This document shows, one piece after another, positions 7,365 through 53,728 of a stretch of DNA of 64,000 nt. A program made the position numbers and the translations under genes. Numbering within the stretch: position 1 is the first letter of the stretch; each line of letters opens with the position of its first letter. The DNA lies in contig CAZIUI010000001.1 of assembly GCA_964542585.1 (NCBI GenBank), forward strand, positions 16,824 to 80,823, given 5' to 3'. The DNA is from an uncultured Sphingobacteriales bacterium (lineage in GTDB: Bacteria > Bacteroidota > Bacteroidia > CAILMK01 > CAYYUA01). The notes beneath the pieces were generated by a model. That model made no database searches, was not told the origin of the DNA, and saw only the letters and a list, made by a program, of their open reading frames with translations.

Positions 7365-7778
7365 AGCGTGAAGATGGTTTGAATTTGAAAAATCAAAGGT
7401 AGGGACGGTTTCTGGAAGTACTAAGCATGATTTTCCACCTGCCTTTTTAATTTCCTTTCAAATGCGGCTTTTGTCTGCAAAAAGGCTGGTGGTGAAGGAA
7501 AAGTTTTTTAAAAATTAAGTAAACCTTCTCGTATATTTACTGGCTTAGGTGAATTGTAAATACGGCAAAAATGTGCTTTAACGTTATTAGAATTAATACA
7601 AAAGCGTCTAAAAGTTAGGCATGTAAAGCTTATTGTAATACGGTTGACGGCGAAGCTGCATGACTACATTTAAAATTTTTACGGAAAAAAAGGAATTGGA
7701 TACAAATGGCTCATTGTTTTGTTATATGAAAAAGTTAACTTTCGTAAAATTCTTTTTTTTTGTGAATATGATTTGTTT

Positions 7779-28607: not shown

Positions 28608-28637
28608 CTTTCATTCCGAAAATTGTTTTCTTTTAGC

Positions 28638-35665: not shown

Positions 35666-36139
35666 ATGGAGGAGGGTTTGTTAATTGAACCAATTTACGC
35701 GGTGGCGTCTGGCCCTCAAACAGACGGGCTTTCTACATTTTTTATATATGCTGGAATAGCTGTTGGACTTGCGGGTGTTATACTGTTACTATCTTATCTG
35801 CTTGGCCAACGGCATGACAACGCACTGACTGGAGAAGTTTACGAGTCAGGTGTGCCTGCTGTTGGAAAAGCCAGGCTTCGGTTTTCCTCCCAATTTTACC
35901 TTGTTGCTATGCTATTTGTCATCTTTGATCTTGAGGCAGTTTTTATCATTGCCTGGGCGGTGGCATTTCAACAAGTAGGAATTACCGGATTTATAGCGGC
36001 AGGAGCATTTATCCTGATTCTAGCTGCCGTTTTGATCTATGAATGGAAAGTTGGAGCACTTGATTTTGGTCCGGATAATAAAGGAATTATAAGGGCTTAC
36101 AAACGATTAGATCCGAATGCTTTACCTAATGAACAATAG
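35666..36139 (+). CDS. nuoA: NADH-quinone oxidoreductase subunit A
   Basis: 3-TM protein with YESG and FDLE motifs. First gene of the operon. Confidence 0.9.
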   Translation: MEEGLLIEPIYAVASGPQTDGLSTFFIYAGIAVGLAGVILLLSYLLGQRHDNALTGEVYESGVPAVGKARLRFSSQFYLVAMLFVIFDLEAVFIIAWAVAFQQVGITGFIAAGAFILILAAVLIYEWKVGALDFGPDNKGIIRAYKRLDPNALPNEQ

Positions 36140-36151
36140 AATTTCATTGAT

Positions 36152-36790
36152 ATGAAGTGGTGGTTAAGTCGTGCAGAACAGCCGGAAACGGCAACTAAAG
36201 GTACGGGCTCTTTTGAGGAGACCGTTCAACAAAATGTGGTTTTCACCAGTTTGCAATCCATGGTTGCCTGGGGGCGAAAGAATTCCATTTGGCCTTTCAA
36301 CTTTGGGCTATCCTGTTGTTACGTGGAAATGGCTACCTCCGTTACCAGTAAATATGACATATCCAGGTTTGGGGCTGAAGTATTGAGAGGTACGCCCCGC
36401 GAGGCTGACGTTATGATCATTGCAGGAACTCCTTTTATAAAAATGGCTCCCGTTATCAAGCGGCTCTATCAACAAATGATGGAGCCGCGCTGGGTTATTT
36501 CTATGGGATCCTGTGCTAATTCCGGGGGCATGTACGACATTTATAGTGTTGTACAAGGCGTTGATAAGATATTGCCTGTGGATGTTTATGTACCGGGGTG
36601 CCCCCCGCGCCCCAACGCTTTTATGGAGGGCTTGTTAATGTTGAGTGACGCTGTTGGTAAAGAGCGCAGGCCCCTGAGTTGGGTCATAGGACCGCAAGGG
36701 GTAGAAAAACCTGAAGAACGTTCCAGAAGGGATGAAAAGCTGGCCGAGCGACAGGAAATGACTGAGCTTAGGCCACCGGATGATGTTTAA
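36152..36790 (+). CDS. nuoB: NADH-quinone oxidoreductase subunit B
   Basis: [51 protein letters not shown]. Collinear with E. coli NuoB as I remember it. Confidence 0.95.
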
Positions 36791-36817
36791 AAACAGTAGG
36801 GTAAACCAAACCATAAT

Positions 36818-38575
36818 ATGAGTACGGTTGCATTGGACCAGGATATTGTTGCGCATCTACAAGATACTTTTGGCACTGAAAACCTTCTAGAGCAAGAAAC
36901 CGCTGATCAATTTCCAACCTTATGGGTTCCTAAAAGCCAGTTAGTTGATATAGTCTATCACCTGAAACATGGGGTTCCAGCACCTTATACTTTGCTTTAT
37001 GACCTTTCCGCTATCGATGAGCGTTCACGTGCCAATCGAAAAGGACAGCCTCCCTCCGATTTTACGGTATTTTACCACCTCATGTCATTTGAGCGGAATC
37101 ACGATGTGCGGCTAAAGGTCGCACTAGAAGGTGAATTCCCTTCAATACCCACAATAACCCACATTTGGTACAATGCCAACTGGTATGAGCGGGAAGTATA
37201 CGACATGTTTGGGATAACTTTTGAAGATCATCCCTACCATGAAAGAATTCTCATGCCGGGTTATTGGCAAGGCCACCCGCTTCGTAAAGAACATCCCGCA
37301 AGAGGAACAGAGATTGGACCCTTCACGCTGCCAGATGATGAACAAGAACGTCAGGAAGAACATCTAAAGTTTAATCCTGAAGCCTGGGGAATGGAGCGGC
37401 AAAAAGCCGACTCTGACTTTATGTTTCTCAATGTGGGACCTCAGCACCCGGGTACCCATGGGGTTTTAAGAACGGTTTTACAGCTCGATGGTGAAGATAT
37501 CGTAGACGCAGTACCGGAGATTGGTTTTCATCATAGAGGGGCTGAAAAAATGGGTGAACGGCAATCCTGGCACACGTACATCCCATATACGGACCGCGTT
37601 GAATACCTGGCCGGTACCAATAACAATTTACCCTATGTGCTGGCATTAGAGCAGTTAGCAGGGATTGAGGTGCCCGATCGGGTAAAGTACATCCGGGTCA
37701 TGATGTGTGAGCTTTACCGGATTTCAAGTCACCTGGTTTGGTATGGCACTTTTGTTCAGGATATTGGCCACTTCTCAGGTGTGTTTTACATGTTTTCAGA
37801 CCGTGAAAAAGTGCTTGAAATCTGTGAGGCTATTTGTGGGGATCGGATGCATCCGAATTGGTTCAGGATCGGTGGCGTTGCCCAGGATCTTCCAAGTGGT
37901 TGGGAGTCAATGGTTCAAAAGTTCCTTGATGATTTCCCAAAGCGTTTGAAGGACTATGACAAAATGTTGGTCAAAAACCGGGTTTTCCGTGATAGAACCA
38001 AAGGAGTAGGGATCTACAACACCAAAGAAGCCATTGAATGGGGCGTTACAGGCCCCGGTTTAAGGGCTACCGGTTACAAGTGGGATTTCAGAAAAGAGCG
38101 CCCTTATTCTGGTTATGAGCATTTTGATTTTGATGTTCCGGTAGGAGAAAACGGAGATGCCTTTGATAGGGCAATTGTACGTATAGAGGAAATGCGCCAG
38201 AGCTTGCGGATCATACAACAATGCGTGGATAATATGCCGGCTGGAGAGCACAAATCCCGTCACAGACTTACCACGCCCCCGCTCAAGGATAACACCATGC
38301 ATGATATCGAAACCTTGATAGATCACTTTATGGGGGTAAGTTGGGGGCCAGTATTTCCAGCTGGGGAATCCTTGGTATCTATTGAAGCTCCGAAAGGAAA
38401 TAACGGTTATTACCTTGTCAGTGATGGTAGTACTGTTTCCTACAGGACCCGGATACGGACCCCATGTTTCCCACACCTTCAAATGCTGCCCTATATCTCA
38501 AGGGGTTATACCATTGCCGATATGCTCGCAATTTTGGGAAGTATTGATTATGTGTTATCCGATGTAGACCGTTGA
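36818..38575 (+). CDS. nuoCD: NADH-quinone oxidoreductase fused subunit C/D
   Basis: 585 aa. The NuoC part has [15 protein letters not shown]. The NuoD part has [18 protein letters not shown] and a C-terminal [11 protein letters not shown]. Confidence 0.95.
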
Positions 38576-38603
38576 GGGATCATTTCGATATAAAAATACG
38601 GCC

Positions 38604-39068
38604 ATGTTAAGTGACCAGGAGAAACGAGAAATAGACGAAGAAATTGCGATTTACCCAGCAAAGGAAAATGCCTGTCTGGAGGCGCTTCAGGTTGTTCAGA
38701 AACACCGAAATTGGGTTTCAGATGATGCGCTAAAGAGCGTAGCTGAATACCTTGAGATGACCCCTGATGAGCTAGAGGGTGTAGCAACTTTTTACAACCT
38801 GATTTTTCGCAAGCCTGTTGGCCGGAACGTTATCCTGATGTGTGAAAGCATCAGTTGTTGGGTATTAGACTATGAGCGATTGATGAGCTACATTAAACAA
38901 AAGCTCAATCTAGACCTTGGAGAAACAACACCGGATAACCGGTTTACCCTGTTAACCATTCCTTGCTTAGGGAATTGTGATCATGGTCCGGCTATGATGG
39001 TTAATGATAACCTTCACCAGGATTTGACAGAGGATCGTATTGACGAAATACTAAAGCAGTACACTTAA
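38604..39068 (+). CDS. nuoE: NADH-quinone oxidoreductase subunit E
   Basis: 2Fe-2S thioredoxin-like fold with Cys pattern C..ISC...C.G.C. Confidence 0.9.
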   Translation: MLSDQEKREIDEEIAIYPAKENACLEALQVVQKHRNWVSDDALKSVAEYLEMTPDELEGVATFYNLIFRKPVGRNVILMCESISCWVLDYERLMSYIKQKLNLDLGETTPDNRFTLLTIPCLGNCDHGPAMMVNDNLHQDLTEDRIDEILKQYT

Positions 39069-39080
39069 AAATGAGGAGAA

Positions 39081-40343
39081 ATGGAAAAGCCGCTGACTAA
39101 AGATATTCGGGAAGATAGAACACCACTTACGCTAAAGGAATATGAAGCAACAGGCGGTTATGAGGCGTTAAAATACGCCTTAGCCAATATGAAACCCAGT
39201 GAGGTGACGGGAGAAGTGAAACAGGCCAATGTAAAAGGTCGTGGTGGCGCTGGGTTCCCACTGGGCATGAAGTGGGGTTTTGTAGATATTAGCGATAATG
39301 CCCCTCATCCTAAATACCTGATCGCTAACGCTGATGAGATGGAACCCGGTACGTTTAAGGACCGGCTCCTTATGGAAGGTAATCCCCACCAATTGATAGA
39401 GGGGATGATCCTTGCAGCTTATGCCATTAGGGCTGATATTGCTTTTATTTTCCTTAGATGGGCTTACAGAGAGGCCGAAGCTCGGCTAAAGCATGCTATT
39501 AAAGAGGCCGAAGAAGCTGGATACCTGGGTAAAAATATCCTGGGCTCGGGCTGGGGTTTAGAAATGCACATTCACACAAGCGTGGGACGTTACATGTGTG
39601 GCGAAGAAACGGGACTCATAAACGCGTTGGAAGGTAAACGGGCAACGCCAAGGGCTAAGCCCCCATTTCCTCAAGCAGTCGGACTTTTTGGTAAGCCCAC
39701 TATTGTTAACAATGTGGAGTCGTTATGTAACATCCCCCACATCGTGAACAATGGAGCTCAGTGGTTTCTGAACCTTGGTATATCCGATGAAGGGGGCACT
39801 AAACTGTACGGGGTTAGTGGAAATGTGAAAAATCCCGGTGTTTGGGAACTTCCCTTGGGCGTTTCTATGCGCACCATCATTGAGGAATATGCCGGTGGGA
39901 TGAAAAATGGTCATCAATTCAGGGCCGCACTTCCTGGTGGCGCTTCTACTGATTTTCTGACGACTGATCACATGGACGATATGATGGATTATAAAACGGT
40001 CATGGACAATGGAAGCCGGTTAGGAACCGGATTACTCATTGTTCTGGATGATCAAACGTCAGTCGTTGGCTTTGTCGCCAACCTTGAAAAGTTTTTTGCG
40101 CAAGAATCCTGTGGCTGGTGCACACCCTGCCGCGATGGAATACCTTATGTGCAGAAAACACTGTTAAACATGTACAATGGCTACGGCAAGCCCGGCGACA
40201 TTGAAATACTTGAAGAACATACCAGTTATTTAGCGCCAGGTAAAACCTTTTGCGCTTTTGCACCGGGGGCTATGGAGCCCTTACAAAGTGCTCTAAAATA
40301 CTTCAGAGAAGATTTTGAAGCCTGCATCGCTGAACCTGCTTAA
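39081..40343 (+). CDS. nuoF: NADH-quinone oxidoreductase subunit F
   Basis: GRGGAGFP FMN/NADH site, YMCGEETGLI, and 4Fe-4S ESCGWCTPCR. Confidence 0.95.
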   Translation: MEKPLTKDIREDRTPLTLKEYEATGGYEALKYALANMKPSEVTGEVKQANVKGRGGAGFPLGMKWGFVDISDNAPHPKYLIANADEMEPGTFKDRLLMEGNPHQLIEGMILAAYAIRADIAFIFLRWAYREAEARLKHAIKEAEEAGYLGKNILGSGWGLEMHIHTSVGRYMCGEETGLINALEGKRATPRAKPPFPQAVGLFGKPTIVNNVESLCNIPHIVNNGAQWFLNLGISDEGGTKLYGVSGNVKNPGVWELPLGVSMRTIIEEYAGGMKNGHQFRAALPGGASTDFLTTDHMDDMMDYKTVMDNGSRLGTGLLIVLDDQTSVVGFVANLEKFFAQESCGWCTPCRDGIPYVQKTLLNMYNGYGKPGDIEILEEHTSYLAPGKTFCAFAPGAMEPLQSALKYFREDFEACIAEPA

Positions 40344-40357
40344 GAAACCTTGCTGCT

Positions 40358-43123
40358 ATGGCAACGATTTATATTGATAATGAAGCTTATGAGGCCAGAG
40401 ACCGGCAGAACCTGCTAGAGGCCTGCCTGTCAAATGGTTTAGATCTACCATACTTTTGCTGGCATCCGGAATTAGGCTCTGTAGGTGCTTGTCGGCAATG
40501 TGCCGTTAAGCAATACAAAGACGAAAACGATACGCAGGGCAAACTGGTGATGTCCTGTATGACACCAGTTTCCGATGGGGCGCAGGTTTCAATTAAAGAT
40601 CCCGAAGCTGATCAGTTCCGAAAAAGCATTATTGAGGAATTGATGACCAATCATCCGCATGATTGCCCAACTTGTGATGAAGGTGGGCACTGTCACCTTC
40701 AGGATATGACAATCATGACGGGCCATAACTACCGGCGTTTTCGCTTCAATAAAAAAACTTTCAGAAATCAGGATCTGGGGCCCTTCATCCATCACGAGAT
40801 GAACCGGTGTATAACTTGTTATCGCTGTGTTCGGTTTTATCGGGATTATGCAGGTGGCCGTGATTTGAAAGAGCAAGCCAACGGAGTAAGAACTTATTTT
40901 GGCCGCCATGAGGATGGTCCGCTTCAAAATGAGTTTAGTGGTAATCTGGTGGAAGTTTGCCCAACCGGTGTATTCACGGATAAAACTTATCGTCAGCATT
41001 ATACCCGCAAATGGGATTTGACCACAGCTCCATCCGTTTGTCATCATTGCGGCTTAGGTTGCAACATCATAGCAGGTGAACGGTATGGCTCGCTTCGCCG
41101 GGTTGAAACACGCTACAATGGAGAGGTAAATGGGTATTTCTTATGTGACCGCGGACGTTTTGGTTATGAATTCGTAAACCATGATGAGCGGCTATGCTAC
41201 CCCCTTCAAAAAGAACAAGATGGTAATCAGCATTCTATTCCTAAAGAGCGGGCACTTAGTGAAATCAGCAATATCCTTGAGAATAGTCAAAAGCCCATTG
41301 GAATTGGCTCACCGCGTGCTTCGATGGAATCCAACCAAATGTTAAAAGCATTAGTAGGAGAAGAACATTTCTATCTGGGCATGGCTGATAAGGACTATCA
41401 TCTGACACGTAAAGCTTACGATATCCTGCAGAATGGGCCTGCCCGAACACCAGGGCTTCGGGAAATTCAAGAAGCGGATGCGGCTTTTGTTTTGGGAGAG
41501 GATATAACTAATACTGCTCCTTTAGCAGCCCTTTATTTACGGCAGGTTGTAAAGACTCAACCCCGTGAAAAGGCGATGGAGCAAGCTGGAATTCCTGATT
41601 GGCAGGAATTAGCCCTTCAGAATGCCACCTACAATCAATATGGCCCGCTACACCTGGCCACTCACACGTGGACTAAGCTAGAAGATGTCGCCTCTGCTTC
41701 AATTCACGCTTCTAATGAAGGCATTGCAAGGCTTGGCCATGCCGTTGCAAACCTTATCAATTCCAATGCACCTTCGGTTGAAGGGTTGACAGTAGAAGAA
41801 CAGGCCAAAGCCGACAAAATTGCTGACAACCTGAAAAATGCAAAGCGCCCCCTAGTGGTTTCAGGTACCAGCGCAGGTAGTGAGGCAGTTATGGAGGCTG
41901 CTGCTAATATTGCTTACGCGCTATCTACCAGTGAGGAGCCAGCTGAGCTTGCGCTAACTGTACCAGAAGCAAATTCGATGGGTCTGGCAATGCTTGATGG
42001 TAAGCCTTTATCTGAAGGGCTTGATGCACTCCAAAACCGGGAAGCTGATACTATCGTCTCTCTGGAAAACGACCTTTACAGGCGAGCAGGTCATGATAAA
42101 ATAGCCAAAGCGTTAAGTGATGCGGCTCACCTTATAGCAATTGATCATACAGCAAATGCCACTACCCGTCAGGCAGATGTGGTGCTACCGGCTGGTAGTT
42201 TTGCTGAGTCGGATGGTACGCTTATTAACAATGAAGGCCGGGCGCAGCGATTTTACCAGGTTTATGTGACCGAGAATGATATCCATGAAAGTTGGCGTTG
42301 GCTCCGTGAAATTTTCCATGCGCTAGGTAGGGGTGATGTTGTTGAAGATCTCCAGTCTCTTGATGACTTCACGCAGCGGGTCATTCAATCCAACTCCGTA
42401 TTCAAGCCTATGGAAGACATTGCGCCACCACCGGGCTTTCGTATCCATGGTCAGAAAATTCCCCGGCAATCTCACCGGTACAGTGGTCGAACAGCTATTG
42501 GCGCTCACAAAAATGTTAGTGAAGAAAAGCCACCCGAAGATGAGGATTCTCCCCTCTCCTTTACAATGGAGGGATTTAGGGGTACGGTGCCCTCATCGAG
42601 TATATCTTACTTTTGGTCTCCAGGCTGGAGTTCAATTCAGTCCGTGAATAAATTTCAAATTGAGGTAGGGGGCAAGCTTCATGGCGGAGATCCTGGCAAG
42701 CGACTTATAGAGCCTGCTTCGATTGAGGAATGGCAGTTTTACCAAGATCCACCGAAGGCTTTTATGCCGCATGAAAACACCTTTGAAGTTGTGCCACTTT
42801 ATCACATTTTCGGCTCAGAAGAACAAAGTATGAACGCACCAGCCGTACAACAGCGAGCTGCAGGTCCTTATTTAGCTTTATCTGAAGAAGACGCAAAGCA
42901 AATCGGAGTTCTTGAGGATGACATTGTGGATATAAGTTTTGATGAAGTACAGTTGAGTTTACCGGTACATCTTAGGTCTGACTTGCCAAAGGGATTGGTG
43001 GGTTATCCGCGTGGATTACCCGGTTTACCGGAACTTAACTTGCCATCGCAGGCTGGTTTAAAGAAATCCGAAAGTACCGTTCCATCTATTTCAGCACAGC
43101 CCGCAGTACATAGCGAAGTTTAA
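40358..43123 (+). CDS. nuoG: NADH-quinone oxidoreductase subunit G (long, E. coli-like form)
   Basis: 921 aa. N-terminal 2Fe-2S and 4Fe-4S Cys clusters (CWHP...GACRQC, HPHDCPTCDEGGHCHLQ, CITCYRCVRF). Molybdopterin-like C-terminal domains. Confidence 0.95.
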   Translation: MATIYIDNEAYEARDRQNLLEACLSNGLDLPYFCWHPELGSVGACRQCAVKQYKDENDTQGKLVMSCMTPVSDGAQVSIKDPEADQFRKSIIEELMTNHPHDCPTCDEGGHCHLQDMTIMTGHNYRRFRFNKKTFRNQDLGPFIHHEMNRCITCYRCVRFYRDYAGGRDLKEQANGVRTYFGRHEDGPLQNEFSGNLVEVCPTGVFTDKTYRQHYTRKWDLTTAPSVCHHCGLGCNIIAGERYGSLRRVETRYNGEVNGYFLCDRGRFGYEFVNHDERLCYPLQKEQDGNQHSIPKERALSEISNILENSQKPIGIGSPRASMESNQMLKALVGEEHFYLGMADKDYHLTRKAYDILQNGPARTPGLREIQEADAAFVLGEDITNTAPLAALYLRQVVKTQPREKAMEQAGIPDWQELALQNATYNQYGPLHLATHTWTKLEDVASASIHASNEGIARLGHAVANLINSNAPSVEGLTVEEQAKADKIADNLKNAKRPLVVSGTSAGSEAVMEAAANIAYALSTSEEPAELALTVPEANSMGLAMLDGKPLSEGLDALQNREADTIVSLENDLYRRAGHDKIAKALSDAAHLIAIDHTANATTRQADVVLPAGSFAESDGTLINNEGRAQRFYQVYVTENDIHESWRWLREIFHALGRGDVVEDLQSLDDFTQRVIQSNSVFKPMEDIAPPPGFRIHGQKIPRQSHRYSGRTAIGAHKNVSEEKPPEDEDSPLSFTMEGFRGTVPSSSISYFWSPGWSSIQSVNKFQIEVGGKLHGGDPGKRLIEPASIEEWQFYQDPPKAFMPHENTFEVVPLYHIFGSEEQSMNAPAVQQRAAGPYLALSEEDAKQIGVLEDDIVDISFDEVQLSLPVHLRSDLPKGLVGYPRGLPGLPELNLPSQAGLKKSESTVPSISAQPAVHSEV

Positions 43124-43144
43124 AGCATTTTAAATTCCCTAACC

Positions 43145-44095
43145 ATGGCAACCATCTCGGTCGTGCTTTTGATTGTATTTTCAATTTCCCCTGCCCTTAT
43201 TTGGGTAGAGCGTAGAATGTTGGCTTTTTGGCAAGACCGGAAAGGGCCTAATAGGGTAGGACCATTAGGGATTTTTCAGCCAGTAGCTGATGCTGTAAAG
43301 CTTATTTTTAAAGAAGACTGGACGCCACCCTTTGCTGATCGGTTTGTTTTTATCCTGGCACCCACGATAATCGTTATAAGCATTTTGATGAGCTTCATGA
43401 TTATCCCTTTTACTCCCGATCTGGTGGTGCTAGATCTTAATATTGGGGTGTTGTTTTATTTGGCCATGTCTTCCCTCGGGGCTTATAGTTTAGTCTTAGG
43501 AGGTTGGGCTTCTAATAGTAAATATTCGCTGATAGGAGCTATGAGGGGCGCCTCACAAATGATTACTTACGAAGTTTTCCTGGGCCTGTCCTTGATGGGA
43601 ATTGTGATATTAAGTGGCTCTTTGAGCCTTAAGGATATTGTTTTAGCTCAAAAAGATGGCTGGTATGTTTTCCCGCAGTTCCTGGGTTTCTTCCTGTTTT
43701 TGGTAGCTGCACTTGCGGAGAGCCATCGTCTGCCTTTTGATTTACCGGAATCAGAAAGTGAATTAGGAGCGGGCTTCCACTCAGAATATTCCGGGATGAA
43801 GTTCGGGATGTTCTTTTTGGGTGAATACATGGGAATTGTCCTGATATCCGCTCTTACCACGACCTTTTTTCTAGGAGGTTGGCTACCCCCGGTTGACATG
43901 GCCTGGGCTAATGCAATTCCGCCCATCATTTGGTTTATGGGCAAAACCTTTATTTTCATTCTGTTATTTATTTTACTTCGAGCATCTATTCCGAGGCCCC
44001 GTTATGATCAGCTATTGGGGTATGGATGGAAAATCATGTTACCTTTGGCACTCCTGAATTTATTAGGAACAGGAATTTTTACCCTGTTGACTTAA
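43145..44095 (+). CDS. nuoH: NADH-quinone oxidoreductase subunit H
   Basis: [36 protein letters not shown]. Confidence 0.95.
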
Positions 44096-44127
44096 ATTGC
44101 TTAGGTAGGTTAAAGAAAATTGACCTT

Positions 44128-44643
44128 ATGTGGAGTATATTCAGAAGTTTAGCAATGGTTTTCATGCACATCTTTAGCAAGAAAGAAACCATTGAGTATC
44201 CCGATACTAAACCTTATTTAGCGCCTCGTTATCGCGGCCGAATTATCCTTAGCCGTGATCCGGATGGAGGAGAGCGCTGTGTGGGATGCTATCTATGTGC
44301 GGTGGCCTGCCCAGTTGATTGCATAGCTCTTCAGGCTACTGAGGATGAAAACGGAAGGCGCTACCCTGAGACCTTCCAGATTAACTTCTCAAGGTGTATA
44401 TATTGTGGTTTATGCGAGGAAGCTTGTCCAACCTACGCTATTCAATTAACACCTGATTACGAAATGGCTGAATACAACCGTCAAAATATGGTTTACGAGA
44501 AAGAACACCTGCTAATCAATGGGCAGGGTAAACACCATGGTTACAATTATTACAAGGTTTCTGGAATGGCAATTGGTGGAAAAGATAAAGGGCAAGCTGA
44601 GCGAGAAGAAGAGCCCGTTGATACCAAAAGTCTTATCCCCTAA
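44128..44643 (+). CDS. nuoI: NADH-quinone oxidoreductase subunit I
   Basis: Two 4Fe-4S ferredoxin motifs: [12 protein letters not shown] and [15 protein letters not shown] 44128 is chosen; the track ORF start at 44026 overlaps nuoH. Confidence 0.9.
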
Positions 44644-44682
44644 ATTCGCGACTTCAATTCGGGCTCTAAACCCTAGCTATTA

Positions 44683-45231
44683 ATGGACCTCAGCGTTGTC
44701 TTTTACACAGCTGCCGCCGTTTCGATCTTTTCCACTATAATGGTGATTACTCGGTATAATGGGGTACATGCCCTTTTATGGCTTATATTATCGCTTTTAT
44801 CAATGGCCATGATTTTTTTCACGCTCGGAGCGCCCTTCTTAGCAGCGCTTGAAGTAGTGATCTATGCGGGAGCCATTATGGTGCTTTTCATTTTTGTGGT
44901 CATGATGCTCAACCTTGGTCAGGACCAGGTTAGAACCGAACGAAAGTGGCTTACACCTAAGAGTTGGGTCATGCCATCTCTTTTTGCGTTAATCCTGCTT
45001 GTTGAACTTCTTTATATCTTAAGTGCAGGTACCCCTGAAGGGCTTGATCCAGCCAAAATAAATCCAAAAGCCATTGGAAAAGCTTTGTATGGTCCTTACT
45101 TAATAGGTGTTGAATTAACAGCCATTCTGTTGATGGCCGGTATTGTAGGGGCTTACCATATTGGCCGTAAGAAAAAACAAGCCGTTCATCGTTACATGAA
45201 AGAAGAGGTTACTGATGGAAGTACCCGTTAA
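44683..45231 (+). CDS. nuoJ: NADH-quinone oxidoreductase subunit J
   Basis: Hydrophobic 5-TM protein. Motif VIYAGAIMVLFIFVVMML. Confidence 0.9.
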   Translation: MDLSVVFYTAAAVSIFSTIMVITRYNGVHALLWLILSLLSMAMIFFTLGAPFLAALEVVIYAGAIMVLFIFVVMMLNLGQDQVRTERKWLTPKSWVMPSLFALILLVELLYILSAGTPEGLDPAKINPKAIGKALYGPYLIGVELTAILLMAGIVGAYHIGRKKKQAVHRYMKEEVTDGSTR

Positions 45232-45520
45232 CGCTGCTCTCGCCTTGTCCGGTATTCTCATGATGTTAGGATTAATCGGAGTTCTTGTGCGCAGGAATAT
45301 TATTTTTATGCTGATGTCAATTGAAGTGATGCTGAATGCTTCCGGGTTAGCTTTTGTAGTGGGTAGCGCTAAGCACGGAGCCGTTGAGGGGCAAGTTATG
45401 TTTCTCTTTATTCTTGCAGTGGCAGCCGCTGAAGTGGCGGTTGGACTAGCCCTTATCATAAAAGTTTATCAACACTTCCAAACCCTCGATACCGATGGGC
45501 TTAACCAGTTAAAAGGTTAA
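45215..45520 (+). CDS. nuoK: NADH-quinone oxidoreductase subunit K
   Basis: 101 aa, 3 TM. VRRNIIFMLMSIEVMLNA and AAAEVAVGLA. 17-nt overlap with nuoJ. Confidence 0.9.
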   Translation: MEVPVNAALALSGILMMLGLIGVLVRRNIIFMLMSIEVMLNASGLAFVVGSAKHGAVEGQVMFLFILAVAAAEVAVGLALIIKVYQHFQTLDTDGLNQLKG

Positions 45521-45535
45521 TAAAAACCCAATTGC

Positions 45536-47419
45536 ATGCACGCCTTAATTGGTCTTATTCCGGCCATTCCCTTTTTTAGCTTTTTAGTTCTCAGTCTGAC
45601 AGGTTTACGCTTAACTAAGCCTTTAACCGCTATTTTAGGAGTTGGATCTATAGGCTTATCAGCTATTTTTAGTGTCATAGCAGCTTTATTTTTTTTTGGT
45701 AGCGATGCTCAGAGCTTTGAAGTTGTACTATGGCAATGGATGAACGTAGGCGGTTTTCAACCTGAGTTTGGATTTCGAGTGGATGCGCTTACCGTGGCTT
45801 TTATACTTGTAATCACTGTTATAGGATTTTTTATCCATCTTTTTTCATCTGAATTCATGTACCATGAGCCAGGCTTTGGGCGCTTTTTTGCAGCCATGAA
45901 CCTTTTTGTTAGTGCCATGCTCATCCTGGTAATGGCTAATAACCTGGCCCTGTTGTATTTAGGTTGGGAGGGTGTAGGCCTTTGCAGTTATTTATTAATA
46001 GGATTTTACTACAATGAAACCAAGAACACCCTAGCAGCCCAAAAAGCCTTTGTAGTAACGCGAATTGGTGATGCTGCCCTTGGAATTGGCTTGTTCCTGT
46101 TGTTTGCAAGCTTAGGCACGCTTACTTTTAGGGAGTTGCCACAAGCTATTGAGCAATCATGGAAAGTGGGTGATCCGCTTGCTATCAGTGCGGCAGCACT
46201 TTTACTAATAGGTGCATTGGGTAAGTCAGCGCAGTTACCGCTTCAAACCTGGCTACCGGATGCCATGGCCGGACCATCGCCGGTCAGTGCACTTATTCAC
46301 GCTGCTACCATGGTGACGGCTGGGGTTTATCTTATCGCAAGGACCCACTTTATTTTTACGTTGGCACCCTCAGTTATGATGCTTGTAGCAATTATTGGAG
46401 CAGTTACTTTACTCGTGGCAGGCTTCAGTGCACTTACGCAGCGAGATATAAAACGTGTCCTTGCTTACTCCACTATTAGCCAGATAGGTTACATGTTCCT
46501 AGCCTTGGGAGTAGGAGCGTGGTCAGCTGGTATTTTCCACTTTGTTATCCATGCCTTTTTTAAGGCTTTGCTGTTTTTAGGAGCCGGAGTGGTCATTCAT
46601 GCGCTCCACGATGAACATGATATTTTCAAAATGGGGGGATTAAGGAAGCAACTCCCGGTTACTTTCTGGACCTTTCTCATTGGGTCAGCTTGTTTAGCAG
46701 CTATTCCATTAATAACAGCAGGTTTTTACAGTAAGGATGCTATTTTATGGGCAGCTTTTGCCAGTGATCAGGGAGGTTCATTACTTTGGATAGCTGGCTT
46801 CCTTGGGGCTATTGTCACCGCTTTTTATACCTTTCGAATGGTGTTTGTCACCTTTTTTGGCAAAGCGCAAATAGAAGTTGATCACAAACCGGGCATGGTA
46901 ATTAAGCTTCCGCTAATCGTATTAGCTATTCTATCCCTGGTAGGAGGTTTTATAGAAACGCCGCACTCGATTGGAGGAATCCATGTATTTTCAGGATTTG
47001 TAAACGGAGCCTTACCGGTTTTTGAGGCGCATGGAAGCTTGAGTACTGAAATTCTTCTACAGGTCCTTACATCATTAATGGCCTTAATAGCCATATTCAT
47101 GGCGTACCAAGTGTACGTAAAACAAACCATCAATCTTCAATCGTTATCGGAAGGTAAGGTAGCCAATGGGCTTCATACTTTCCTGACTAAAGGGTGGCAA
47201 TTTGATGCCCTATACGATACAGTTCTGGTTAAACCCTTTGGTTTTATCGCTAGAATAAACAGATCTGATGTGATCGATAAGTTTTTTGCTTTTATTGTCT
47301 TTGTTGCTAAAGCTTTTCATTACCTCTTTAGCCTAACCCAATCCGGCCGGTTGCGATGGTACGCCACTGGTTTAGCTTTGGGTGCCATATTGACCCTAAC
47401 GATAATGGTTTTCTTATGA
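45536..47419 (+). CDS. nuoL: NADH-quinone oxidoreductase subunit L
   Basis: 627-aa antiporter-like subunit. GWEGVGLCSYLLIGF, GKSAQLPLQTWLPDAMAGPSPVSALIHAATMVTAG. Confidence 0.95.
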   Translation: MHALIGLIPAIPFFSFLVLSLTGLRLTKPLTAILGVGSIGLSAIFSVIAALFFFGSDAQSFEVVLWQWMNVGGFQPEFGFRVDALTVAFILVITVIGFFIHLFSSEFMYHEPGFGRFFAAMNLFVSAMLILVMANNLALLYLGWEGVGLCSYLLIGFYYNETKNTLAAQKAFVVTRIGDAALGIGLFLLFASLGTLTFRELPQAIEQSWKVGDPLAISAAALLLIGALGKSAQLPLQTWLPDAMAGPSPVSALIHAATMVTAGVYLIARTHFIFTLAPSVMMLVAIIGAVTLLVAGFSALTQRDIKRVLAYSTISQIGYMFLALGVGAWSAGIFHFVIHAFFKALLFLGAGVVIHALHDEHDIFKMGGLRKQLPVTFWTFLIGSACLAAIPLITAGFYSKDAILWAAFASDQGGSLLWIAGFLGAIVTAFYTFRMVFVTFFGKAQIEVDHKPGMVIKLPLIVLAILSLVGGFIETPHSIGGIHVFSGFVNGALPVFEAHGSLSTEILLQVLTSLMALIAIFMAYQVYVKQTINLQSLSEGKVANGLHTFLTKGWQFDALYDTVLVKPFGFIARINRSDVIDKFFAFIVFVAKAFHYLFSLTQSGRLRWYATGLALGAILTLTIMVFL

Positions 47420-49014
47420 TGCTGATATGGATATTATTGATCATGCTTGGAGGTGGTGGTGTAGCTTGGTTGCTTAGTCAATGGAGTAAGGTTTTATCGC
47501 GGATAGTTGCTTTAGTTGCTGCCTTAATCCCTTTTCTCATTTCCACAGGCTTTTGGGTCAACACTGGTTTTCCTGTAGGAAGTGGTCATACCGGTAATTG
47601 GCTTATGAGTCTCCAGGTTGAATGGATCCCTTCGTTTGGAATTGATTTTTACCTCGCCCTTGATGGCTTAAGCCTATTGATGATTGTCCTAACAACTTTC
47701 ATAGGCGCTTTAACCATCCTGTACAGTTGGGGGCGTTACCCCTACAAAGAAGGCTTTTACTACTTTAATATGCTTTGGGTTCTAGCTGGAATAACGGGTG
47801 TTTTCCTGGCAATGGATCTTTTTCTGTTTTATTTCCTGTGGGAAGTAATGCTGATCCCTATGTACTTTTTGATTGGTATTTGGGGAGGTGAAAACCGTTA
47901 CAATGCTGCATTTAAATTTTTCATATTCACGCAGGCCGGTGGTTTGCTGATGTTGCTTTCGATTTTGGGGCTTCAGGTGTTACACTGGCAGGAAACCGGA
48001 TCGCCTGATTTCAGCTATAGGGCGCTTTTAAACACCAAAATTGGATTAGCTTACGCTTATCCACTGATGTTGGGATTTTTAGCTGGATTATTGGTAAAAC
48101 TTCCTGCCTTTCCTTTACACACTTGGTTACCCAATACTTACACGGAAGCGCCTTCGAGCGCCAGCATTGTTTTATCAGGCCTAATGGTCAAAACAGCTGC
48201 GTATGCTCTACTGCGGTTTGTTTTGCCACTCTTTCCCTCAGCCGTGGCATCTTTTAGCCCCATAGGAATGCTGTTAGGAGTTATCGGTATTTTATATGGT
48301 GCTAAATTAGCTTACGCCCAAACTGATATAAAAAGAATTGCAGCTTATTCCAGCTTCAGCCATATGGGTTACATCCTTTTAGGTGTTTTTGCTTTTAACC
48401 AATTGGCTATGCAAGGTGTGGTCATGCAGATAGTAGCCCATGGCATTAGTACAACGGCAATATTTGCGCTTACCGGCCTTATTGAATCTCGTTTTGAAAC
48501 CCGTGATATTAATAACCTGGGCGGGTTGTACACTAGTAACCCTGTTATGGGCGGAGTCGCTTTGATTTTTATCATGGCATCATTGGGGTTGCCCGGTTTA
48601 GCCAATTTTATTGCTGAGTTCTTAGTATTAATGGGCGCTTATCAAGCGGATGTCCTACTAGCTGTAATTGCTACAATGGGTTTGGTGCTTTCAAGCCTTT
48701 ATGCCCTAAGGATGATGCAAAAAGTCTTTTTTGGTGAGGTTCCCGATAACTTTAAAAATCTCACAAAGCCTGTTATTAAACCAACAGAGGGTATTGTAAT
48801 GGGGACCCTTATCATGGCAGTTGTTGTATTGGGATTTTACCCTCAGCCTGTATTTTCTACCGCTAAAGGTACGATTCAGTCTCTTACAGCAACAACTGTT
48901 GAACCTGAAGATAAGAAATCAGCCAAAAAGAAGCAGTCGTTGAAATTCAAACATGAACTGGTGGATCTTAATCCGGCCCTAATTAACAAAAGGCTTTCTC
49001 ATGACGCCAACTGA
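47416..49014 (+). CDS. nuoM: NADH-quinone oxidoreductase subunit M
   Basis: Antiporter-like subunit. ATG 47416 overlaps the nuoL stop (ATGA). KLPAFPLHTWLPNTYTEAPSSASIVLSG. Confidence 0.9.
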   Translation: MMLIWILLIMLGGGGVAWLLSQWSKVLSRIVALVAALIPFLISTGFWVNTGFPVGSGHTGNWLMSLQVEWIPSFGIDFYLALDGLSLLMIVLTTFIGALTILYSWGRYPYKEGFYYFNMLWVLAGITGVFLAMDLFLFYFLWEVMLIPMYFLIGIWGGENRYNAAFKFFIFTQAGGLLMLLSILGLQVLHWQETGSPDFSYRALLNTKIGLAYAYPLMLGFLAGLLVKLPAFPLHTWLPNTYTEAPSSASIVLSGLMVKTAAYALLRFVLPLFPSAVASFSPIGMLLGVIGILYGAKLAYAQTDIKRIAAYSSFSHMGYILLGVFAFNQLAMQGVVMQIVAHGISTTAIFALTGLIESRFETRDINNLGGLYTSNPVMGGVALIFIMASLGLPGLANFIAEFLVLMGAYQADVLLAVIATMGLVLSSLYALRMMQKVFFGEVPDNFKNLTKPVIKPTEGIVMGTLIMAVVVLGFYPQPVFSTAKGTIQSLTATTVEPEDKKSAKKKQSLKFKHELVDLNPALINKRLSHDAN

Positions 49015-50449
49015 CTACTTGGCTTTGCTTCCCATTCTTGTAACTACTGCAGGAGCATTGTTAATCATGTTGCTCACTGCCTTCTACCGCTCTCATGGGT
49101 TGGTCGCCACTTCCTGTGCTGTTCTATTTGGTGGAGCTTTTATATCAGTGATAGGATCCAATAGTGTAGCTCCACAAGCTATTAGTAGCCACTTAGTCGG
49201 GGAAGGTATTGCTTTACTAAAAATTAATGGCTTCACGCTTATATATAGTGCAATTATACTAGGATGTAGCTTAACGGTAACCATGCTGTCATTTGGCTAT
49301 TTAGAGCAGTATTCGGAGCAAAAAGAGGAATATTACATTCTACTGCTCATAGCCACTTTAGGAGCATTGGTTTTGGCAACAGCCAATCACTTTATCGCCC
49401 TGTTTCTAGGATTGGAAGTCCTTAGCGTGGCATTGTATGTTTTAATTGCTTATTTAAGGCATAAAGGGGCTGCACTTGAAGCGGCTACAAAATACCTGGT
49501 GATGGCATCCGTTTCATCTGCATTATTGTTATTTGGGATGGCTTTGATTTACAACGTTCTGGGAACCATGGAATTTAGTCTGATAGCTTCCCGGCTTGAT
49601 GGTTTAAGTTCCCTGGATCCGCTTTTTATTGGAGGATTGGCCATCATGATTGTGGGTATTGGTTTCAAATTAGCCCTGGTTCCTTTTCATCTGTGGACCG
49701 CAGACGTTTATCAGGGAGCACCAGCCCCCGTTACGGCCCTTATTGCTACCATATCAAAAGGAAGCATGTTTGCTGTCCTGTTACGCTTTTACATGGAAAT
49801 TGATGGAGGGGCCTACGCCAGTTTAATAACAATATTTAGCGTCATTGCTATTGCTTCTATGTTATTAGGAAATATCCTGGCGCTCTTGCAAAATAATGTA
49901 AAACGCGTGCTAGCATTTTCCTCAATTGCCCATCTTGGGTATGTTTTAGTGGCCTTTCTTGCCAGTACCCAGTTAGGAGCAAAAGCGGCTACGTTTTATT
50001 TGATCGCTTACTTTATTACAACGCTCGGCAGTTTTGGTGTAATTGCTGTAATGTCAAGCGGTGAAACCGATGCAGAAGATATAAGTAATTATGAGGGTTT
50101 ATTCTGGACCCGCCCTTTGCTGGCCCTCGTATTTACTGCAATGCTCCTTTCATTGGCAGGTATACCTTTGACTGCAGGCTTTATTGGAAAGTATTACGTT
50201 TTAACATCCGGTATCGATTCCAATCTTTGGTATTTGGTTTTAACGCTTATTATAAGCAGTATCATAGGGCTATACTATTACCTCCGTATTGTTGCTACCA
50301 TGTTTAAACCTGAACCAGAAGCCAATACTTTAAAACCGCATTTCAATGTTTTCAATACTTTGGCGCTTGCCATTTTAGGCGTATTGGTAGTTTGGTATGG
50401 AGTCTATCCTACTGGGATGCTTAGCCTTATTAATGGTATGATGGGCTAA
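49001..50449 (+). CDS. nuoN: NADH-quinone oxidoreductase subunit N
   Basis: Antiporter-like subunit. FKLALVPFHLWTADVYQGAPAPVTA. 14-nt overlap with nuoM. Confidence 0.9.
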   Translation: MTPTDYLALLPILVTTAGALLIMLLTAFYRSHGLVATSCAVLFGGAFISVIGSNSVAPQAISSHLVGEGIALLKINGFTLIYSAIILGCSLTVTMLSFGYLEQYSEQKEEYYILLLIATLGALVLATANHFIALFLGLEVLSVALYVLIAYLRHKGAALEAATKYLVMASVSSALLLFGMALIYNVLGTMEFSLIASRLDGLSSLDPLFIGGLAIMIVGIGFKLALVPFHLWTADVYQGAPAPVTALIATISKGSMFAVLLRFYMEIDGGAYASLITIFSVIAIASMLLGNILALLQNNVKRVLAFSSIAHLGYVLVAFLASTQLGAKAATFYLIAYFITTLGSFGVIAVMSSGETDAEDISNYEGLFWTRPLLALVFTAMLLSLAGIPLTAGFIGKYYVLTSGIDSNLWYLVLTLIISSIIGLYYYLRIVATMFKPEPEANTLKPHFNVFNTLALAILGVLVVWYGVYPTGMLSLINGMMG

Positions 50450-51488
50450 TAAAGAGGCTAAGTAGTGTTTGCTTTCCTTGCTCACTAGGGTGATAGGGAA
50501 ACCAAGATATTTCGGACCTAGGTTAGTCAACTTCCCATTATAAACCTTAGAGTTAGGGCTTCAAGCATTAAGAACCGTAGGTGCGAGTGTGGTATTTTAA
50601 GGGCCAATTATTGATGCTTTTATTCTTAACAATTCTTATTCCTTTAAAAAGATTCAAGTTTTTTAGTTAAAAATTAGGGATACCTATACGTTCGTTCTTT
50701 GCTTAGCCCAAAATTTCTGAAGGAAAATTAACTGACCGCTTTTAACATTAAGATGATCTAGCTTAATTCGGTAGATTACTCTAATTGGTGATAACAAAGG
50801 CGAGAAGTAAAGAAGAAGATCGATTTACTAAGAACAAAAAAGTTTTTTTGAACAAAATTCCTAAAAGCTTTAAGATGGTTGTTGAAGCGTTTGTGGTGGA
50901 TATGCTTAAAATTCTTTTAGCTAAAGGAAGGCTTTTCAAAAATACTTTTGAAACTCCTTGCAGGGTTAGGTAGCATACTGCTTTTATCCACTCAATCCAG
51001 GCAGGGGTGTATCAAAAGTTGCTTTAAGCTTTTTTATAAAAAGCACCAATAATTTCCGCTCGAGCACAAGAGCTGTTTAAACCCAGGCTCGCTTTTTAAC
51101 GCTGCCACAATAAATGGTATCTCTTGACTTGCATGTATTTCTAAGCAATTATATGATTTTGGAAAGTAATCATTTCTTAATCGAGGCCAAGAATAGGTCG
51201 GATAGCGCCAGCCTTCCAGTCCCATCGGTGCGCAAGCATGCTCAAGTTCGGGTTCTATTATGCCCTATGCCGAAAATATCCTGCTTTTTGAGCTAGGATA
51301 AATTCTCATGTAATTGAAAAACACCTTTGATTTTACCTTATATATAAAATTAAGCTTTTTTAAAAAAATTTATAGTAATAAAAATAAATTTCTTTAAAAC
51401 ACAAAATTTTAATATAATAATAACAATATTTAAGAAAGATTCGAGGATAACTATTTTAAAATTATATTGTAGTAAAAAAATCCGTTTG

Positions 51489-51525
51489 AAAAAATTAGAA
51501 GCAAAGGGGATAATTCCCCTTTGCT
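51489..51525 (-). terminator. Rho-independent terminator of the rhodopsin gene
   Basis: agcaaagggga-taat-tcccctttgct forms an 11-bp perfect stem starting 19 nt after the stop at 51544. On the minus strand it is followed by ttctaatttttt. Confidence 0.75.
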
Positions 51526-51543
51526 TAAAAGGAAGTGTAACAA

Positions 51544-52332
51544 TTATGCAGCTTGCGCCTCAGATTCTGAGTAATTCTGCAATGTCCTTTCCCTGGCAAT
51601 GGCAAAAATCATTAAGCCATACCCAGCTTTAGCGGTAATATCCGCAAAACTGTAACCAACTTGCACGAAAACTTCACTACCTGCACCTGAAAGGCCGAAG
51701 AATGGGCCCATGTAAGCAATGGGATAAAAACCCCAAACAAGCACTGTCAGCAGTAAAATGTTACGGACAAGAATCCTCACACGGCCAGATTCTTCCTTAG
51801 CAGTACCCCAGATTTCCTGAACCAACTTCACAAGAATGATCACAAAGAAAATCGTAGAAATGAAACCCCAAAGACCACGAGTTGAGAACATGGAAGTAGA
51901 AGTCTTGTCTACTTCACCAAAGTAGCCCGTAAGAAGCATCAAAACGGCTGAAATAGAAAGTACTGTGATCAGGTTTCGCGACTTCTCTTTTGATAAGTTC
52001 ATTACTTGAACCAGCTCCACAAGAAGCAAGGGTACGGTAATAAGCCAATCTACGTACCGGTAGGCATCATTGAAAGGCTTGCCTGATGGTACATACATAC
52101 CACCTTCTAATTCAAAAGCAGCCTCCCATGAGAAGTTGATGCGGAAATAGTGGTAGGCAGCAATACCAACCACTAAAGCGGAGGTTACCAGGGCCTTTCG
52201 GTACTCGGGAGCAACAAAATTTCTCCCTAGGATAAAAAAGGCGCCGGACCCCAGAAAAGCAGCAATGGTCAACGACATGGCGTTGTAAACCAAGCTGTAC
52301 TGACCTGCGGTGAGTTCTGGTAGTTGTTCCAT
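51544..52332 (-). CDS. Microbial type-1 rhodopsin, xanthorhodopsin-like light-driven proton pump (DTE motif)
   Basis: 262 aa, 7 TM. Helix C RYVDWLITVPLLLVEL gives D95/T99/E106. H61 lies in AAYHYFR. Helix G FADITAKAGYG gives D231 and the Schiff-base K235. LPELTAGQYSLVYN, FNDAYRYVDW, TRGLWGFISTI and WGFYPIAYM match my memory of Salinibacter xanthorhodopsin. Confidence 0.9.
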   Translation of the reverse strand: MEQLPELTAGQYSLVYNAMSLTIAAFLGSGAFFILGRNFVAPEYRKALVTSALVVGIAAYHYFRINFSWEAAFELEGGMYVPSGKPFNDAYRYVDWLITVPLLLVELVQVMNLSKEKSRNLITVLSISAVLMLLTGYFGEVDKTSTSMFSTRGLWGFISTIFFVIILVKLVQEIWGTAKEESGRVRILVRNILLLTVLVWGFYPIAYMGPFFGLSGAGSEVFVQVGYSFADITAKAGYGLMIFAIARERTLQNYSESEAQAA

Positions 52333-52364
52333 ACTTGGGTTTTTAGGTGTTACAATGTTGTGGT

Positions 52365-52372
52365 CAAATATA
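52365..52372 (-). promoter_or_regulatory. Candidate Bacteroidota -7 promoter box for the rhodopsin gene
   Basis: The minus strand reads TATATTTG, a perfect TAnnTTTG, 33 nt upstream of the ATG at 52332. No clear -33 TTG. Confidence 0.4.
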
Positions 52373-52754
52373 AAAGCTTGTTTGAGAATCTGGTAATCTT
52401 TTTAAACAAATTTTTTTGTGGGTAGACAATTAGACCAAACCTTTTTTCGAAAACATGTGTGCTAAAACCATTTATTTTGCTAACTTAAGTTCATTCGAAA
52501 AATCAAAACTTTAACATTAGTTTTTACCCTAAAAAGTATCTTAAAAGTAGTATTTACAATGTTGCTAACTAATTTATAACTAAAACTAGGAAGCGAACAA
52601 CTTTTAACGAATTTGTACCGGTTGTGTTTGTTTAAATTTTTCATCCTAATTTTAAACAAAAAAATTACAACTTGAGAATTTTTATTAAATGAGAATTAAA
52701 GTATCTTACGGAATTTCAAAGGATTTTTATTACAAAAAGACAAAAACTAACCAG

Positions 52755-52779
52755 TAAATGTTTGATAGCCAAACATTTA
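52755..52779. promoter_or_regulatory. Perfect 10-bp inverted repeat (operator-like) upstream of the 8-TM gene
   Basis: TAAATGTTTG-atagc-CAAACATTTA ends 47 nt upstream of the ATG at 52826. Confidence 0.35.
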
Positions 52780-52825
52780 AAAACCTTGGTTTTGTTTAAG
52801 TTTTCTTTCCATCTAAATAAACAGT

Positions 52826-53728
52826 ATGCAGCAATTTGATAACCTTTTTACACGCCTTCAAAAAATGTTACTTTCAGAAGAAGTGCGTGATTGGAGCGAG
52901 CGCGTGATTATTTTCATAGCTATTATTGGGTTTCTTATCCACCTTTTGTTGATTCTCCTAGCCCACTTCAGCTTTCTAGATTTGGGTGCCCATCCCCTGT
53001 TAAAAGATTACAATTCAGCCATTTATACCCCTTTTTCTTTTATTCTCATTTATGAAGTATATTTACTTGTTTACCACTTGCCTCTATCCATTTCCAACTA
53101 CATTGCTAAACAGTATGAGATTGTAACGCTGATTATTATCAGGCGCATTTTCAAAGACATTTCAGAACTAAAGCTGACCTTAAATTGGTTTGAAAATAAA
53201 GCTGATTTGCAGTTTTCTCTGGACATCGTAACGACCCTATTTTTATTTTTCCTTATTTACTTGTTCTACAAGTTGGTACCTAAACAAGACGGCCGTTCGC
53301 AATTTGAGACGCCTTCCCTCAAAATACAACGATTTATCAATATCAAACGAATTATCAGCATTTCGCTAGTTCCGGTTGTTGCCGGCTTAGCGATTTACAG
53401 CTTTGCAGAATGGTTCCTTGGTACCATTGGGTCTGCTGGTTTTGTAGGTCGCGTACCGATGTTAAAAAACGTTTTTTTTGATGATTTTTTCACCTTATTG
53501 ATCTTAGTAGATGTGCTGCTTTTACTCATTTCATTCTTTGGAACTGAAGATTTTAGTAAAGTTATCCGCAATTCAGGCTTTGTGATATCTACCATCCTTA
53601 TCAAGCTTTCGTTTAGTACTGGAGGTATTATGAACGTTAGTTTGGTACTCCTGGGTGTTCTTTTTGGGGTTGGGATCCTTTGGGTTCACAACCAATACGA
53701 AAAACTGGAGTTACCACGTGAGTTTTAA
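52826..53728 (+). CDS. Uncharacterised integral membrane protein, ~8 TM with 4+4 internal duplication
   Basis: 300 aa. Its two halves align helix by helix (FSFILIYEVYLLVY / FFTLLILVDVLLLLI; YEIVTLIIIRRIF / GFVISTILIKLSF). No catalytic or channel signature recognised. Confidence 0.6.
   Translation: MQQFDNLFTRLQKMLLSEEVRDWSERVIIFIAIIGFLIHLLLILLAHFSFLDLGAHPLLKDYNSAIYTPFSFILIYEVYLLVYHLPLSISNYIAKQYEIVTLIIIRRIFKDISELKLTLNWFENKADLQFSLDIVTTLFLFFLIYLFYKLVPKQDGRSQFETPSLKIQRFINIKRIISISLVPVVAGLAIYSFAEWFLGTIGSAGFVGRVPMLKNVFFDDFFTLLILVDVLLLLISFFGTEDFSKVIRNSGFVISTILIKLSFSTGGIMNVSLVLLGVLFGVGILWVHNQYEKLELPREF

Follow-up and report, generated by a model that had tools for sequence, protein, structure and literature searches.

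The opsin gene in this 64-kb stretch of DNA (the window, here and below) codes for an ordinary, intact member of a known and abundant rhodopsin family, and its sequence and modeled structure place it firmly among the xanthorhodopsins (XR/GR family). We regard it as quite probable that the locus is wholly explained as a free-standing XR/GR pump gene, the product of which would be capable of carrying a carotenoid and would receive its chromophores from outside the window. Any novelty could lie with the neighboring gene, TM300, rather than with the opsin. The two genes are positioned as follows:

51544 to 52332, minus strand: XR-family opsin gene, 262 aa with an ATG start, from the six-frame ORF list.
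52826 to 53728, plus strand: TM300, a candidate rhodopsin-linked gene coding for 300 aa, divergent from the opsin gene.

The first-pass annotation had proposed a 262-aa, 7-TM opsin here without giving its strand, and the reading frame, the Pfam match, and the structural model all agree with that description. The ORF is intact on the minus strand, and residues 22 to 247 of its 262 match Bac_rhodopsin (PF01036; E = 3.3e-39). A scripted motif check locates AAYHYFR at residues 58 to 64 (containing H61), RYVDWLITVPLLLVEL at residues 92 to 107 (containing D95, T99, and E106), GLWGF at residues 153 to 157 (containing W155 and G156), and FADITAKAGYG at residues 229 to 239 (containing D231 and K235), and each of these residues had been correctly placed at the outset. 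The AlphaFold2 model, for which 37 homologues were the input, has a mean pLDDT of 91.1 and a pTM of 0.87, with seven long helices, an N-terminal strand, and a hairpin in the B-C loop (DSSP strands E7, E73-76, and E79-82). At the level of the model, the N-terminal strand and the B-C hairpin make up the small extracellular sheet of XR-type proteins, as is described for Kin4B8 and SrXR (Chazan et al. preprint). With a Bac_rhodopsin fold and a Schiff-base lysine, K235, in helix G, the protein is a type 1 rhodopsin.

A PDB sequence search identifies the Salinibacter xanthorhodopsin SrXR (3DDL) as the best solved relative of the opsin, with 263 bits and an E value of 1.9e-77, and the other solved XRs are close behind, with Kin4B8 at 249 bits, psXR at 236, GR at 231, and TR at 227. 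Scores outside the XRs are 155 bits for the actinorhodopsin 9HFK (from Rhodoluna, according to the Foldseek match listing), ∼107 to 85 bits for Cl− and Na+ pumps, and ∼63 bits for proteorhodopsins (PRs). The opsin is 54% identical to SrXR, 53% to Kin4B8, 49 to 50% to GR, psXR, and TR, 28% to GPR, and 25% to BR, the GPR and BR sequences in the alignment and tree serving as outgroups only. Neighbor joining recovers a monophyletic XR family in 98 of 100 bootstraps and puts the opsin inside it, in a subclade that also contains SrXR, and this phylogeny bears out the earlier view that the protein is XR-like rather than a proteorhodopsin. The top Foldseek match of the opsin model is 3DDL (TM 0.90/0.94, rmsd 1.7 Å), and the 11 best matches are all XR-family chains.

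SrXR is the closest protein to the opsin in both sequence and structure, but it has a five-residue insertion in the F-G loop (AFPEA) that is missing from the opsin, and its host is Salinibacter, whereas the opsin host is a member of the Bacteroidota with ∼43% GC and type IX secretion-system signal domains. The window otherwise contains housekeeping genes and several of these signal domains (Por_Secre_tail and CHU_C), from which the Bacteroidota host is deduced, and the nearest XR-bearing genomes are MAGs labeled "uncultured Sphingobacteriales." Kin4B8 (7YTB/8I2Z), which binds lutein and zeaxanthin, shares the DTE motif, the His, and the fenestration Gly with the opsin; GR (6NWD) and psXR (9WFA) share its catalytic residues, the fenestration Gly, and a hydrophobic pocket floor. 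GPR and the flavobacterial PRs belong to the same superfamily and have the DTE motif, a His75-Asp97 pair, and the tuning-site Leu as in the opsin, but with identity of only ∼28% and scores of ∼63 bits the opsin is outside the PR clade.

Residue equivalences were taken from a 128-sequence alignment, and the 120 best homologues were drawn from a 5.8-billion-protein database. Opsin residues H61, D95, T99, E106, D231, and K235 align with H62, D96, T100, E107, D236, and K240 of SrXR, K235 aligning also with K216 of BR, and all six are invariant among the 120 best homologues. The opsin has both the DTE motif and the His-Asp counterion pair that characterize XRs. We note that the spectral-tuning residue had been given as Leu104, which is off by one and apparently follows SrXR numbering; the opsin residue aligned with BR L93, GPR L105, and SrXR L104 is L103. 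As residues 103 and 104 are both Leu, the conclusion of a green-type Leu stands, and the opsin is predicted from Leu103 to absorb green light.

Taken together, these residues indicate that the opsin is very probably a retinal-binding, light-driven outward H+ pump. By homology to SrXR, GR, and Kin4B8, K235 would bind all-trans retinal as a protonated Schiff base, and photoisomerization would transfer the Schiff-base proton to the counterion D95, paired with H61, with D231 acting as a second counterion. The Schiff base would then be reprotonated by E106 from the cytoplasmic side.

The capacity for a carotenoid is suggested by G156, which the first-pass annotation took to be the fenestration glycine of XR-type pumps and which does align with G156 of SrXR and G153 of Kin4B8, as well as with psXR G172, GR G178, and BR W138. 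The position is Gly in 120 of 120 best homologues. The carotenoid of SrXR is reportedly contacted by L148, G156, F157, T160, M208, and M211. The pocket wall of the opsin is SrXR-like, with F157, T160, Y207, and M208 identical and SrXR L148 replaced by Met (M148). A Tyr at the position of Y207 (Y204 in Kin4B8) is conserved in all carotenoid-binding rhodopsins, and the residue following it, M208 in the opsin, is instead A205 in Kin4B8 and Leu in GR (L230) and psXR (L224).

The pocket floor of the opsin is F211/F212, and F211 is kept in 116 of the 120 best homologues. The Kin4B8 floor is by contrast polar (S208/Y209), and an S208A substitution there leaves 2% of zeaxanthin binding. SrXR has a Met/Ala floor, the Met being M211 (Phe in the opsin), which aligns with M233 of GR, and Met233 has been proposed to hold the 4-keto carbonyl in pockets of the SrXR/GR type; the floors of GR and psXR are M233/L234 and M227/L228, respectively. 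The predicted F211/F212 floor of the opsin is different from that of every XR with a characterized antenna. A Phe at this position could narrow the opening, and a possibility is that the Phe-Phe floor marks a third, uncharacterized class of carotenoid specificity.

Published work favors Gly as a requirement for the antenna. The fenestration is reported to depend on its Gly, a G153F substitution abolishes carotenoid binding by Kin4B8, and Gly is present at this position in 55% of environmental XRs, the other 45% being non-Gly (Chazan et al. preprint). Trp or Phe is frequent there among XRs at large. With 55% of environmental XRs having it, the fenestration Gly is common rather than special.

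The genes that supply retinal and any antenna carotenoid must be located outside the window, because none of blh, crtE/B/I/Y, or crtZ/W/O was found in the whole 64 kb by Pfam annotation, which covered essentially every window ORF of at least 90 to 100 aa. The absence of blh and crt genes first noticed within 12 kb on either side of the opsin therefore holds over the entire window. Searches of the whole window for blh and crtY remnants by tblastn, with the Blh proteins of loci L003 and L017 and the CrtY of L003 as queries and E values up to 50, returned only noise, the best scores being E = 0.1 to 0.7 with none within the opsin-nuoN gap, and a blh pseudogene in the 1.1-kb gap 3′ of the opsin was rejected for want of a tblastn match there. 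In L017 blh is directly downstream of the XR gene, and in L003 it is downstream after crtY, but among the 80 related loci that were fetched, just 33 have blh in their flanks. GR and psXR have no blh beside the gene, as for the opsin, and cyanobacterial XRs are likewise described as being without blh nearby (psXR paper). The novelty first attached to the combination of a fenestration Gly and a missing blh was thus overstated, Gly being the majority state in environmental XRs and blh-less XR loci being common.

The genes and intergenic features around the opsin are as follows:

35666 to 50449, plus strand: nuoA-N, Complex I, 13 genes with nuoCD fused.
50450 to 51543, no strand: ORF-free spacer between nuoN and the opsin 3′ end, 1,094 bp, 33% GC.
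51499 to 51526, minus strand: putative intrinsic terminator hairpin, a 12-bp stem with 6 G-C pairs, then CTAATTTTTT.
52333 to 52825, no strand: divergent intergenic region between the opsin gene and TM300, 493 bp, 26% GC.
52365 to 52372, minus strand: candidate −7 promoter box TATATTTG, 33 to 40 nt upstream of the opsin ATG.

The terminator-like element, a strong hairpin with a T-run, starts 18 nt 3′ of the opsin stop codon, and its hairpin is shared by the close relative L081. In Bacteroidetes the −7 promoter consensus is TAnnTTTG, and the promoter-like block TATATTTG is conserved with the adjoining TTCTCAAACAA in L081 and L083. The opsin gene is accordingly predicted to be a free-standing transcription unit, with a putative promoter region and terminator of its own. 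The nuoN-opsin spacer is ∼480 bp longer than in L081 (1,094 versus 610 bp), its sequence is unique within the window, and among the fetched loci it finds a match only in L081/L082, over the final ∼50 nt that include the hairpin. This spacer has no tRNA and no Rfam match at the gathering score or at E ≤ 1, and its repeats are AT-rich chance repeats only; RNA genes and repeats were rejected as contents of the spacers, with the tRNA and Rfam scans empty. The opsin ORF has a GC content of 45.2%, like its neighbors, TM300 is at 37.5%, and there is a local minimum of 0.37 at 50 to 54 kb. A horizontally acquired low-GC island was rejected, as the dip is due to the two spacers (33% and 26% GC) together with TM300.

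The opsin gene is indeed the next gene after Complex I, but it does not follow directly as first described: it is on the minus strand, convergent with nuoN on the plus strand, and 1,094 bp away. This position, and the recurrence of the order nuoN/opsin/TM300 in L081/L082 (XR 97% identical) and L083/L084 (TM300 75% identical), would suit a proton-motive-force module in which the opsin and Complex I are co-regulated or coupled in function, a pairing of two generators that the first-pass annotation implied. We consider such a module highly improbable, and the pairing is not retained, since the genes are convergent, with a wide spacer in both the window and L081 and a putative terminator after the opsin, the synteny is confined to close relatives, and XRs that are 69 to 80% identical are in unrelated gene contexts. 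These include a DoxX-like gene (L001, XR 80% identical), glutamate dehydrogenase and an ABC-3 permease (L002, 78%), atpD/atpC and urocanase (L167, 76%), and metH and aconitase (L168, 69%), and nuoL/M/N are near the XR gene in none of the 80 related loci L001 to L080, the only matches being in L081. The adjacency to Complex I, seen only in close relatives while these other XRs are elsewhere, is a recent, lineage-specific accident of gene order, with nothing to suggest that the two are co-transcribed. Less likely still is that the opsin acts as a sensor, pumps inward, or transports an ion other than H+, because the full DTE motif, the His-Asp pair, and the carboxylate donor match those of the proven pumps SrXR, GR, TR, Kin4B8, and psXR, the opsin lacks the NDQ and NTQ motifs, and Cl− and Na+ pumps score only 85 to 107 bits against it. 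Loss of blh by the lineage, leaving an apo-protein or relic that could be reconstituted only by scavenged retinal, would account for the lack of blh or any remnant of it in 64 kb, and would fit its clustering with the XR gene in L003 and L017, which are more distantly related. We nevertheless find a relic very unlikely, as the ORF is intact and the functional residues are kept in relatives that are 69 to 97% identical and also without an adjacent blh, a pattern that implies purifying selection, and as blh is often unlinked from XR genes, to judge from the 80 loci.

If the opsin is, as we prefer, a functional and carotenoid-capable H+ pump, Gly156 in place of the Trp of BR would leave a lateral opening beside the retinal ring, at which the ring of a host-made carotenoid could dock and pass blue-light energy to the retinal. 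We lean slightly toward a working antenna of this kind. An H+ pump with retinal as its sole chromophore, either because F211/F212 and M148 narrow or close the opening or because the host has no fitting carotenoid, is a lesser possibility that we doubt but take seriously. It would be consistent with the presence of F211 in place of a residue critical to function in both characterized pocket types, with the lack of carotenoid genes in the window, and with psXR, which has the Gly and binds lutein but not canthaxanthin (psXR paper). The psXR result means that Gly alone predicts neither which pigment binds nor whether the native one does, and makes unreliable any rule by which a polar floor takes hydroxy-carotenoids and a hydrophobic floor takes keto-carotenoids; its authors also caution that the fenestration can be closed secondarily by a different side chain. 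Against the loss of the antenna, however, Gly156 is universal among the 120 homologues while 45% of environmental XRs are non-Gly, which suggests selection for an open site, the wall residues Y207, F157, T160, and M208 are SrXR-like, and all fenestrated XRs tested so far bound some xanthophyll.

The divergent neighbor TM300 is predicted to be all-helical, with ∼8 to 9 long hydrophobic helices. It has no Pfam or NCBIfam match even at E = 1 to 10 and no PDB-sequence match, its AlphaFold2 model is poor (pLDDT 65.5), and a Foldseek search gives nothing better than E = 0.69. The Blh/Brp families PF15461 and TIGR03753 do not match it, and the family alignment has a single invariant His. Identification of TM300 as a Blh, a CrtW/Z, or a known transporter was rejected in view of the lack of Pfam, NCBIfam, and PDB-sequence matches, and since family members coexist with a true blh in L017, L089, L097, L136, and other loci, TM300 is not a Blh substitute. 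The family is large, strongly conserved, and mostly found in Bacteroidota, with more than 7,800 matches and ∼52% identity across genera. A profile search yields 947 representatives of 50%-identity clusters at E ≤ 0.001; the best 150 of these are at most 410 aa, most being ∼300 aa or shorter fragments, and there are no informative fusions among them.

Members of the TM300 family are recurrently located near genes for rhodopsins and for Blh. In a Fodinibius MAG (L017) a homologue is the divergent neighbor of XR-blh, and in a MAG labeled Bdellovibrio (L048) another is 4 kb from an XR gene. When metagenomes were scanned with the family alignment, 80 loci were recovered, averaging 9.3 kb in length, with TM300 proteins 46 to 55% identical to that of the window. 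Ten of these 80 loci have a rhodopsin (nine PR-type and one XR-like) and nine have blh, such that 11 have one or both, representing eight lineages between which TM300 is at most 72% identical. The orientations are TM300> <blh <PR; TM300> PR> crtY> blh>; PR> blh> TM300> (with a 42-nt gap); and TM300> <blh. About 0.2 co-occurrences would be expected by chance over the ∼0.68 Mb of total flank, assuming one rhodopsin per 3- to 4-Mb genome, and the other window neighbors, DinB, PNP, and Usp, are present in none of the 80 loci. In two cases (L085 and L113) a family member directly adjoins a photolyase gene, and one member (L086) has no rhodopsin nearby, so that the link of TM300 to rhodopsin or blh genes is common without being universal.

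No description of the TM300-rhodopsin linkage was found in the literature searched; a "hypothetical protein" is drawn beside blh in the Dokdonia PRO95 paper (2013). We tentatively raise the possibility that the TM300 family is an unrecognized accessory of rhodopsin phototrophy, with a role, for instance, in handling the chromophore or in some membrane function under light control.

As an opsin, the protein described here adds little, as fenestrated XR-type DTE pumps are already abundant, and the use of keto- and hydroxy-carotenoids as antennas by XRs has already been shown structurally. It does represent a very large environmental XR subclade that includes members from Bacteroidota, Verrucomicrobiota, Myxococcota, Chloroflexota, and others, and with a predicted Phe/Phe floor unlike that of any antenna-characterized XR it would be a reasonable test case for the determinants of carotenoid choice. 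The recurrent linkage of TM300 with rhodopsin and blh genes makes it a concrete candidate for an accessory gene as yet missing, and one that can be tested.

The opsin gene, which encodes a predicted proton pump of the xanthorhodopsin (XR) family, is neighbored by TM300, and genes of this family adjoin proteorhodopsin (PR) or XR genes and/or blh, the retinal-forming dioxygenase gene, in 11 of 80 metagenomic loci, the 11 representing eight lineages, in varying orientations.

52826-53728 (+), TM300, a 300-aa membrane protein without family assignment, divergent from the opsin gene
L017:8901-9866, TM300 homologue beside rhodopsin/blh
L048:5251-6171, TM300 homologue at an XR locus
L089/L090/L093/L138, L097, L123, L130, and L136, further TM300-family loci with PR/XR and/or blh

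The TM300 family is large and chiefly found in Bacteroidota, and the other neighbors of the window TM300 are conserved in none of the 80 metagenomic TM300 loci. We note that a photolyase gene, in place of rhodopsin/blh, sometimes adjoins TM300-family genes.

Intergenic DNA flanks the opsin gene on both sides.

52350-52411, conserved block 5' of the opsin ATG, reading TTCTCAAACAAGCTTTTATATTTG on the opsin strand
50450-51543, ORF-free spacer of 33% GC between nuoN, the last Complex I gene, and the opsin 3' end

The upstream block, which contains a TAnnTTTG box, was identified in alignment A4 with two related loci, L081 (XR 97% identical) and L083, and is retained even in L083, the more distant relative; it may be a promoter or operator. 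The spacer exceeds its L081 counterpart by ~480 bp, with the extra stretch at roughly 50930-51440, and searches of it for tRNA, Rfam, repeat, and blh or crtY (carotenoid gene) signals found none.

Beyond this spacer lies the Complex I operon, in which nuoC and nuoD are fused (585 aa), nuoE and nuoF are both present, and NuoG is long (921 aa) with molybdopterin-type domains. We take this layout to be E. coli-like, unlike the 11-subunit form that is common in many Bacteroidota. Other genes of the window are also listed here.

35666-50449, Complex I operon, 13 genes
22199-22807 and 22870-23406 (-), CoaC-like flavoprotein domain and CoaB-like DFP domain in separate adjoining ORFs
27303-28607 (+), SpeD-SpeE fusion, with S-adenosylmethionine decarboxylase and spermidine synthase domains in a single 434-aa ORF
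28623-29690, arginase-family gene directly downstream of the fusion
7719-13820 (+), 2033-aa protein, DUF7948 domain at the N-terminus and type IX secretion-system signal domain CHU_C at the C-terminus

There is no single fused CoaBC, the second ORF of the pair begins with GTG, and the separation could be a genuine split or a frameshift. The middle roughly 1,600 residues of the 2033-aa protein are without annotation.

The surroundings of XR genes differ in other lineages. In a Bacteroidetes MAG (L003:805-6488; XR 65% identical), the opsin is the first gene of a compact light-related cluster, followed on one strand by crtY, blh, and two photolyase/cryptochrome genes. At L167:3164-6777, an XR gene (76% identical) is ~1 kb away from atpD/atpC, coding for the ATP synthase beta and epsilon subunits, and this is a further bioenergetic neighbor of XR, in a lineage separate from that of the window. 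The atpD/atpC case illustrates that bioenergetic adjacencies readily arise where the XR gene occupies a differing site in each lineage.
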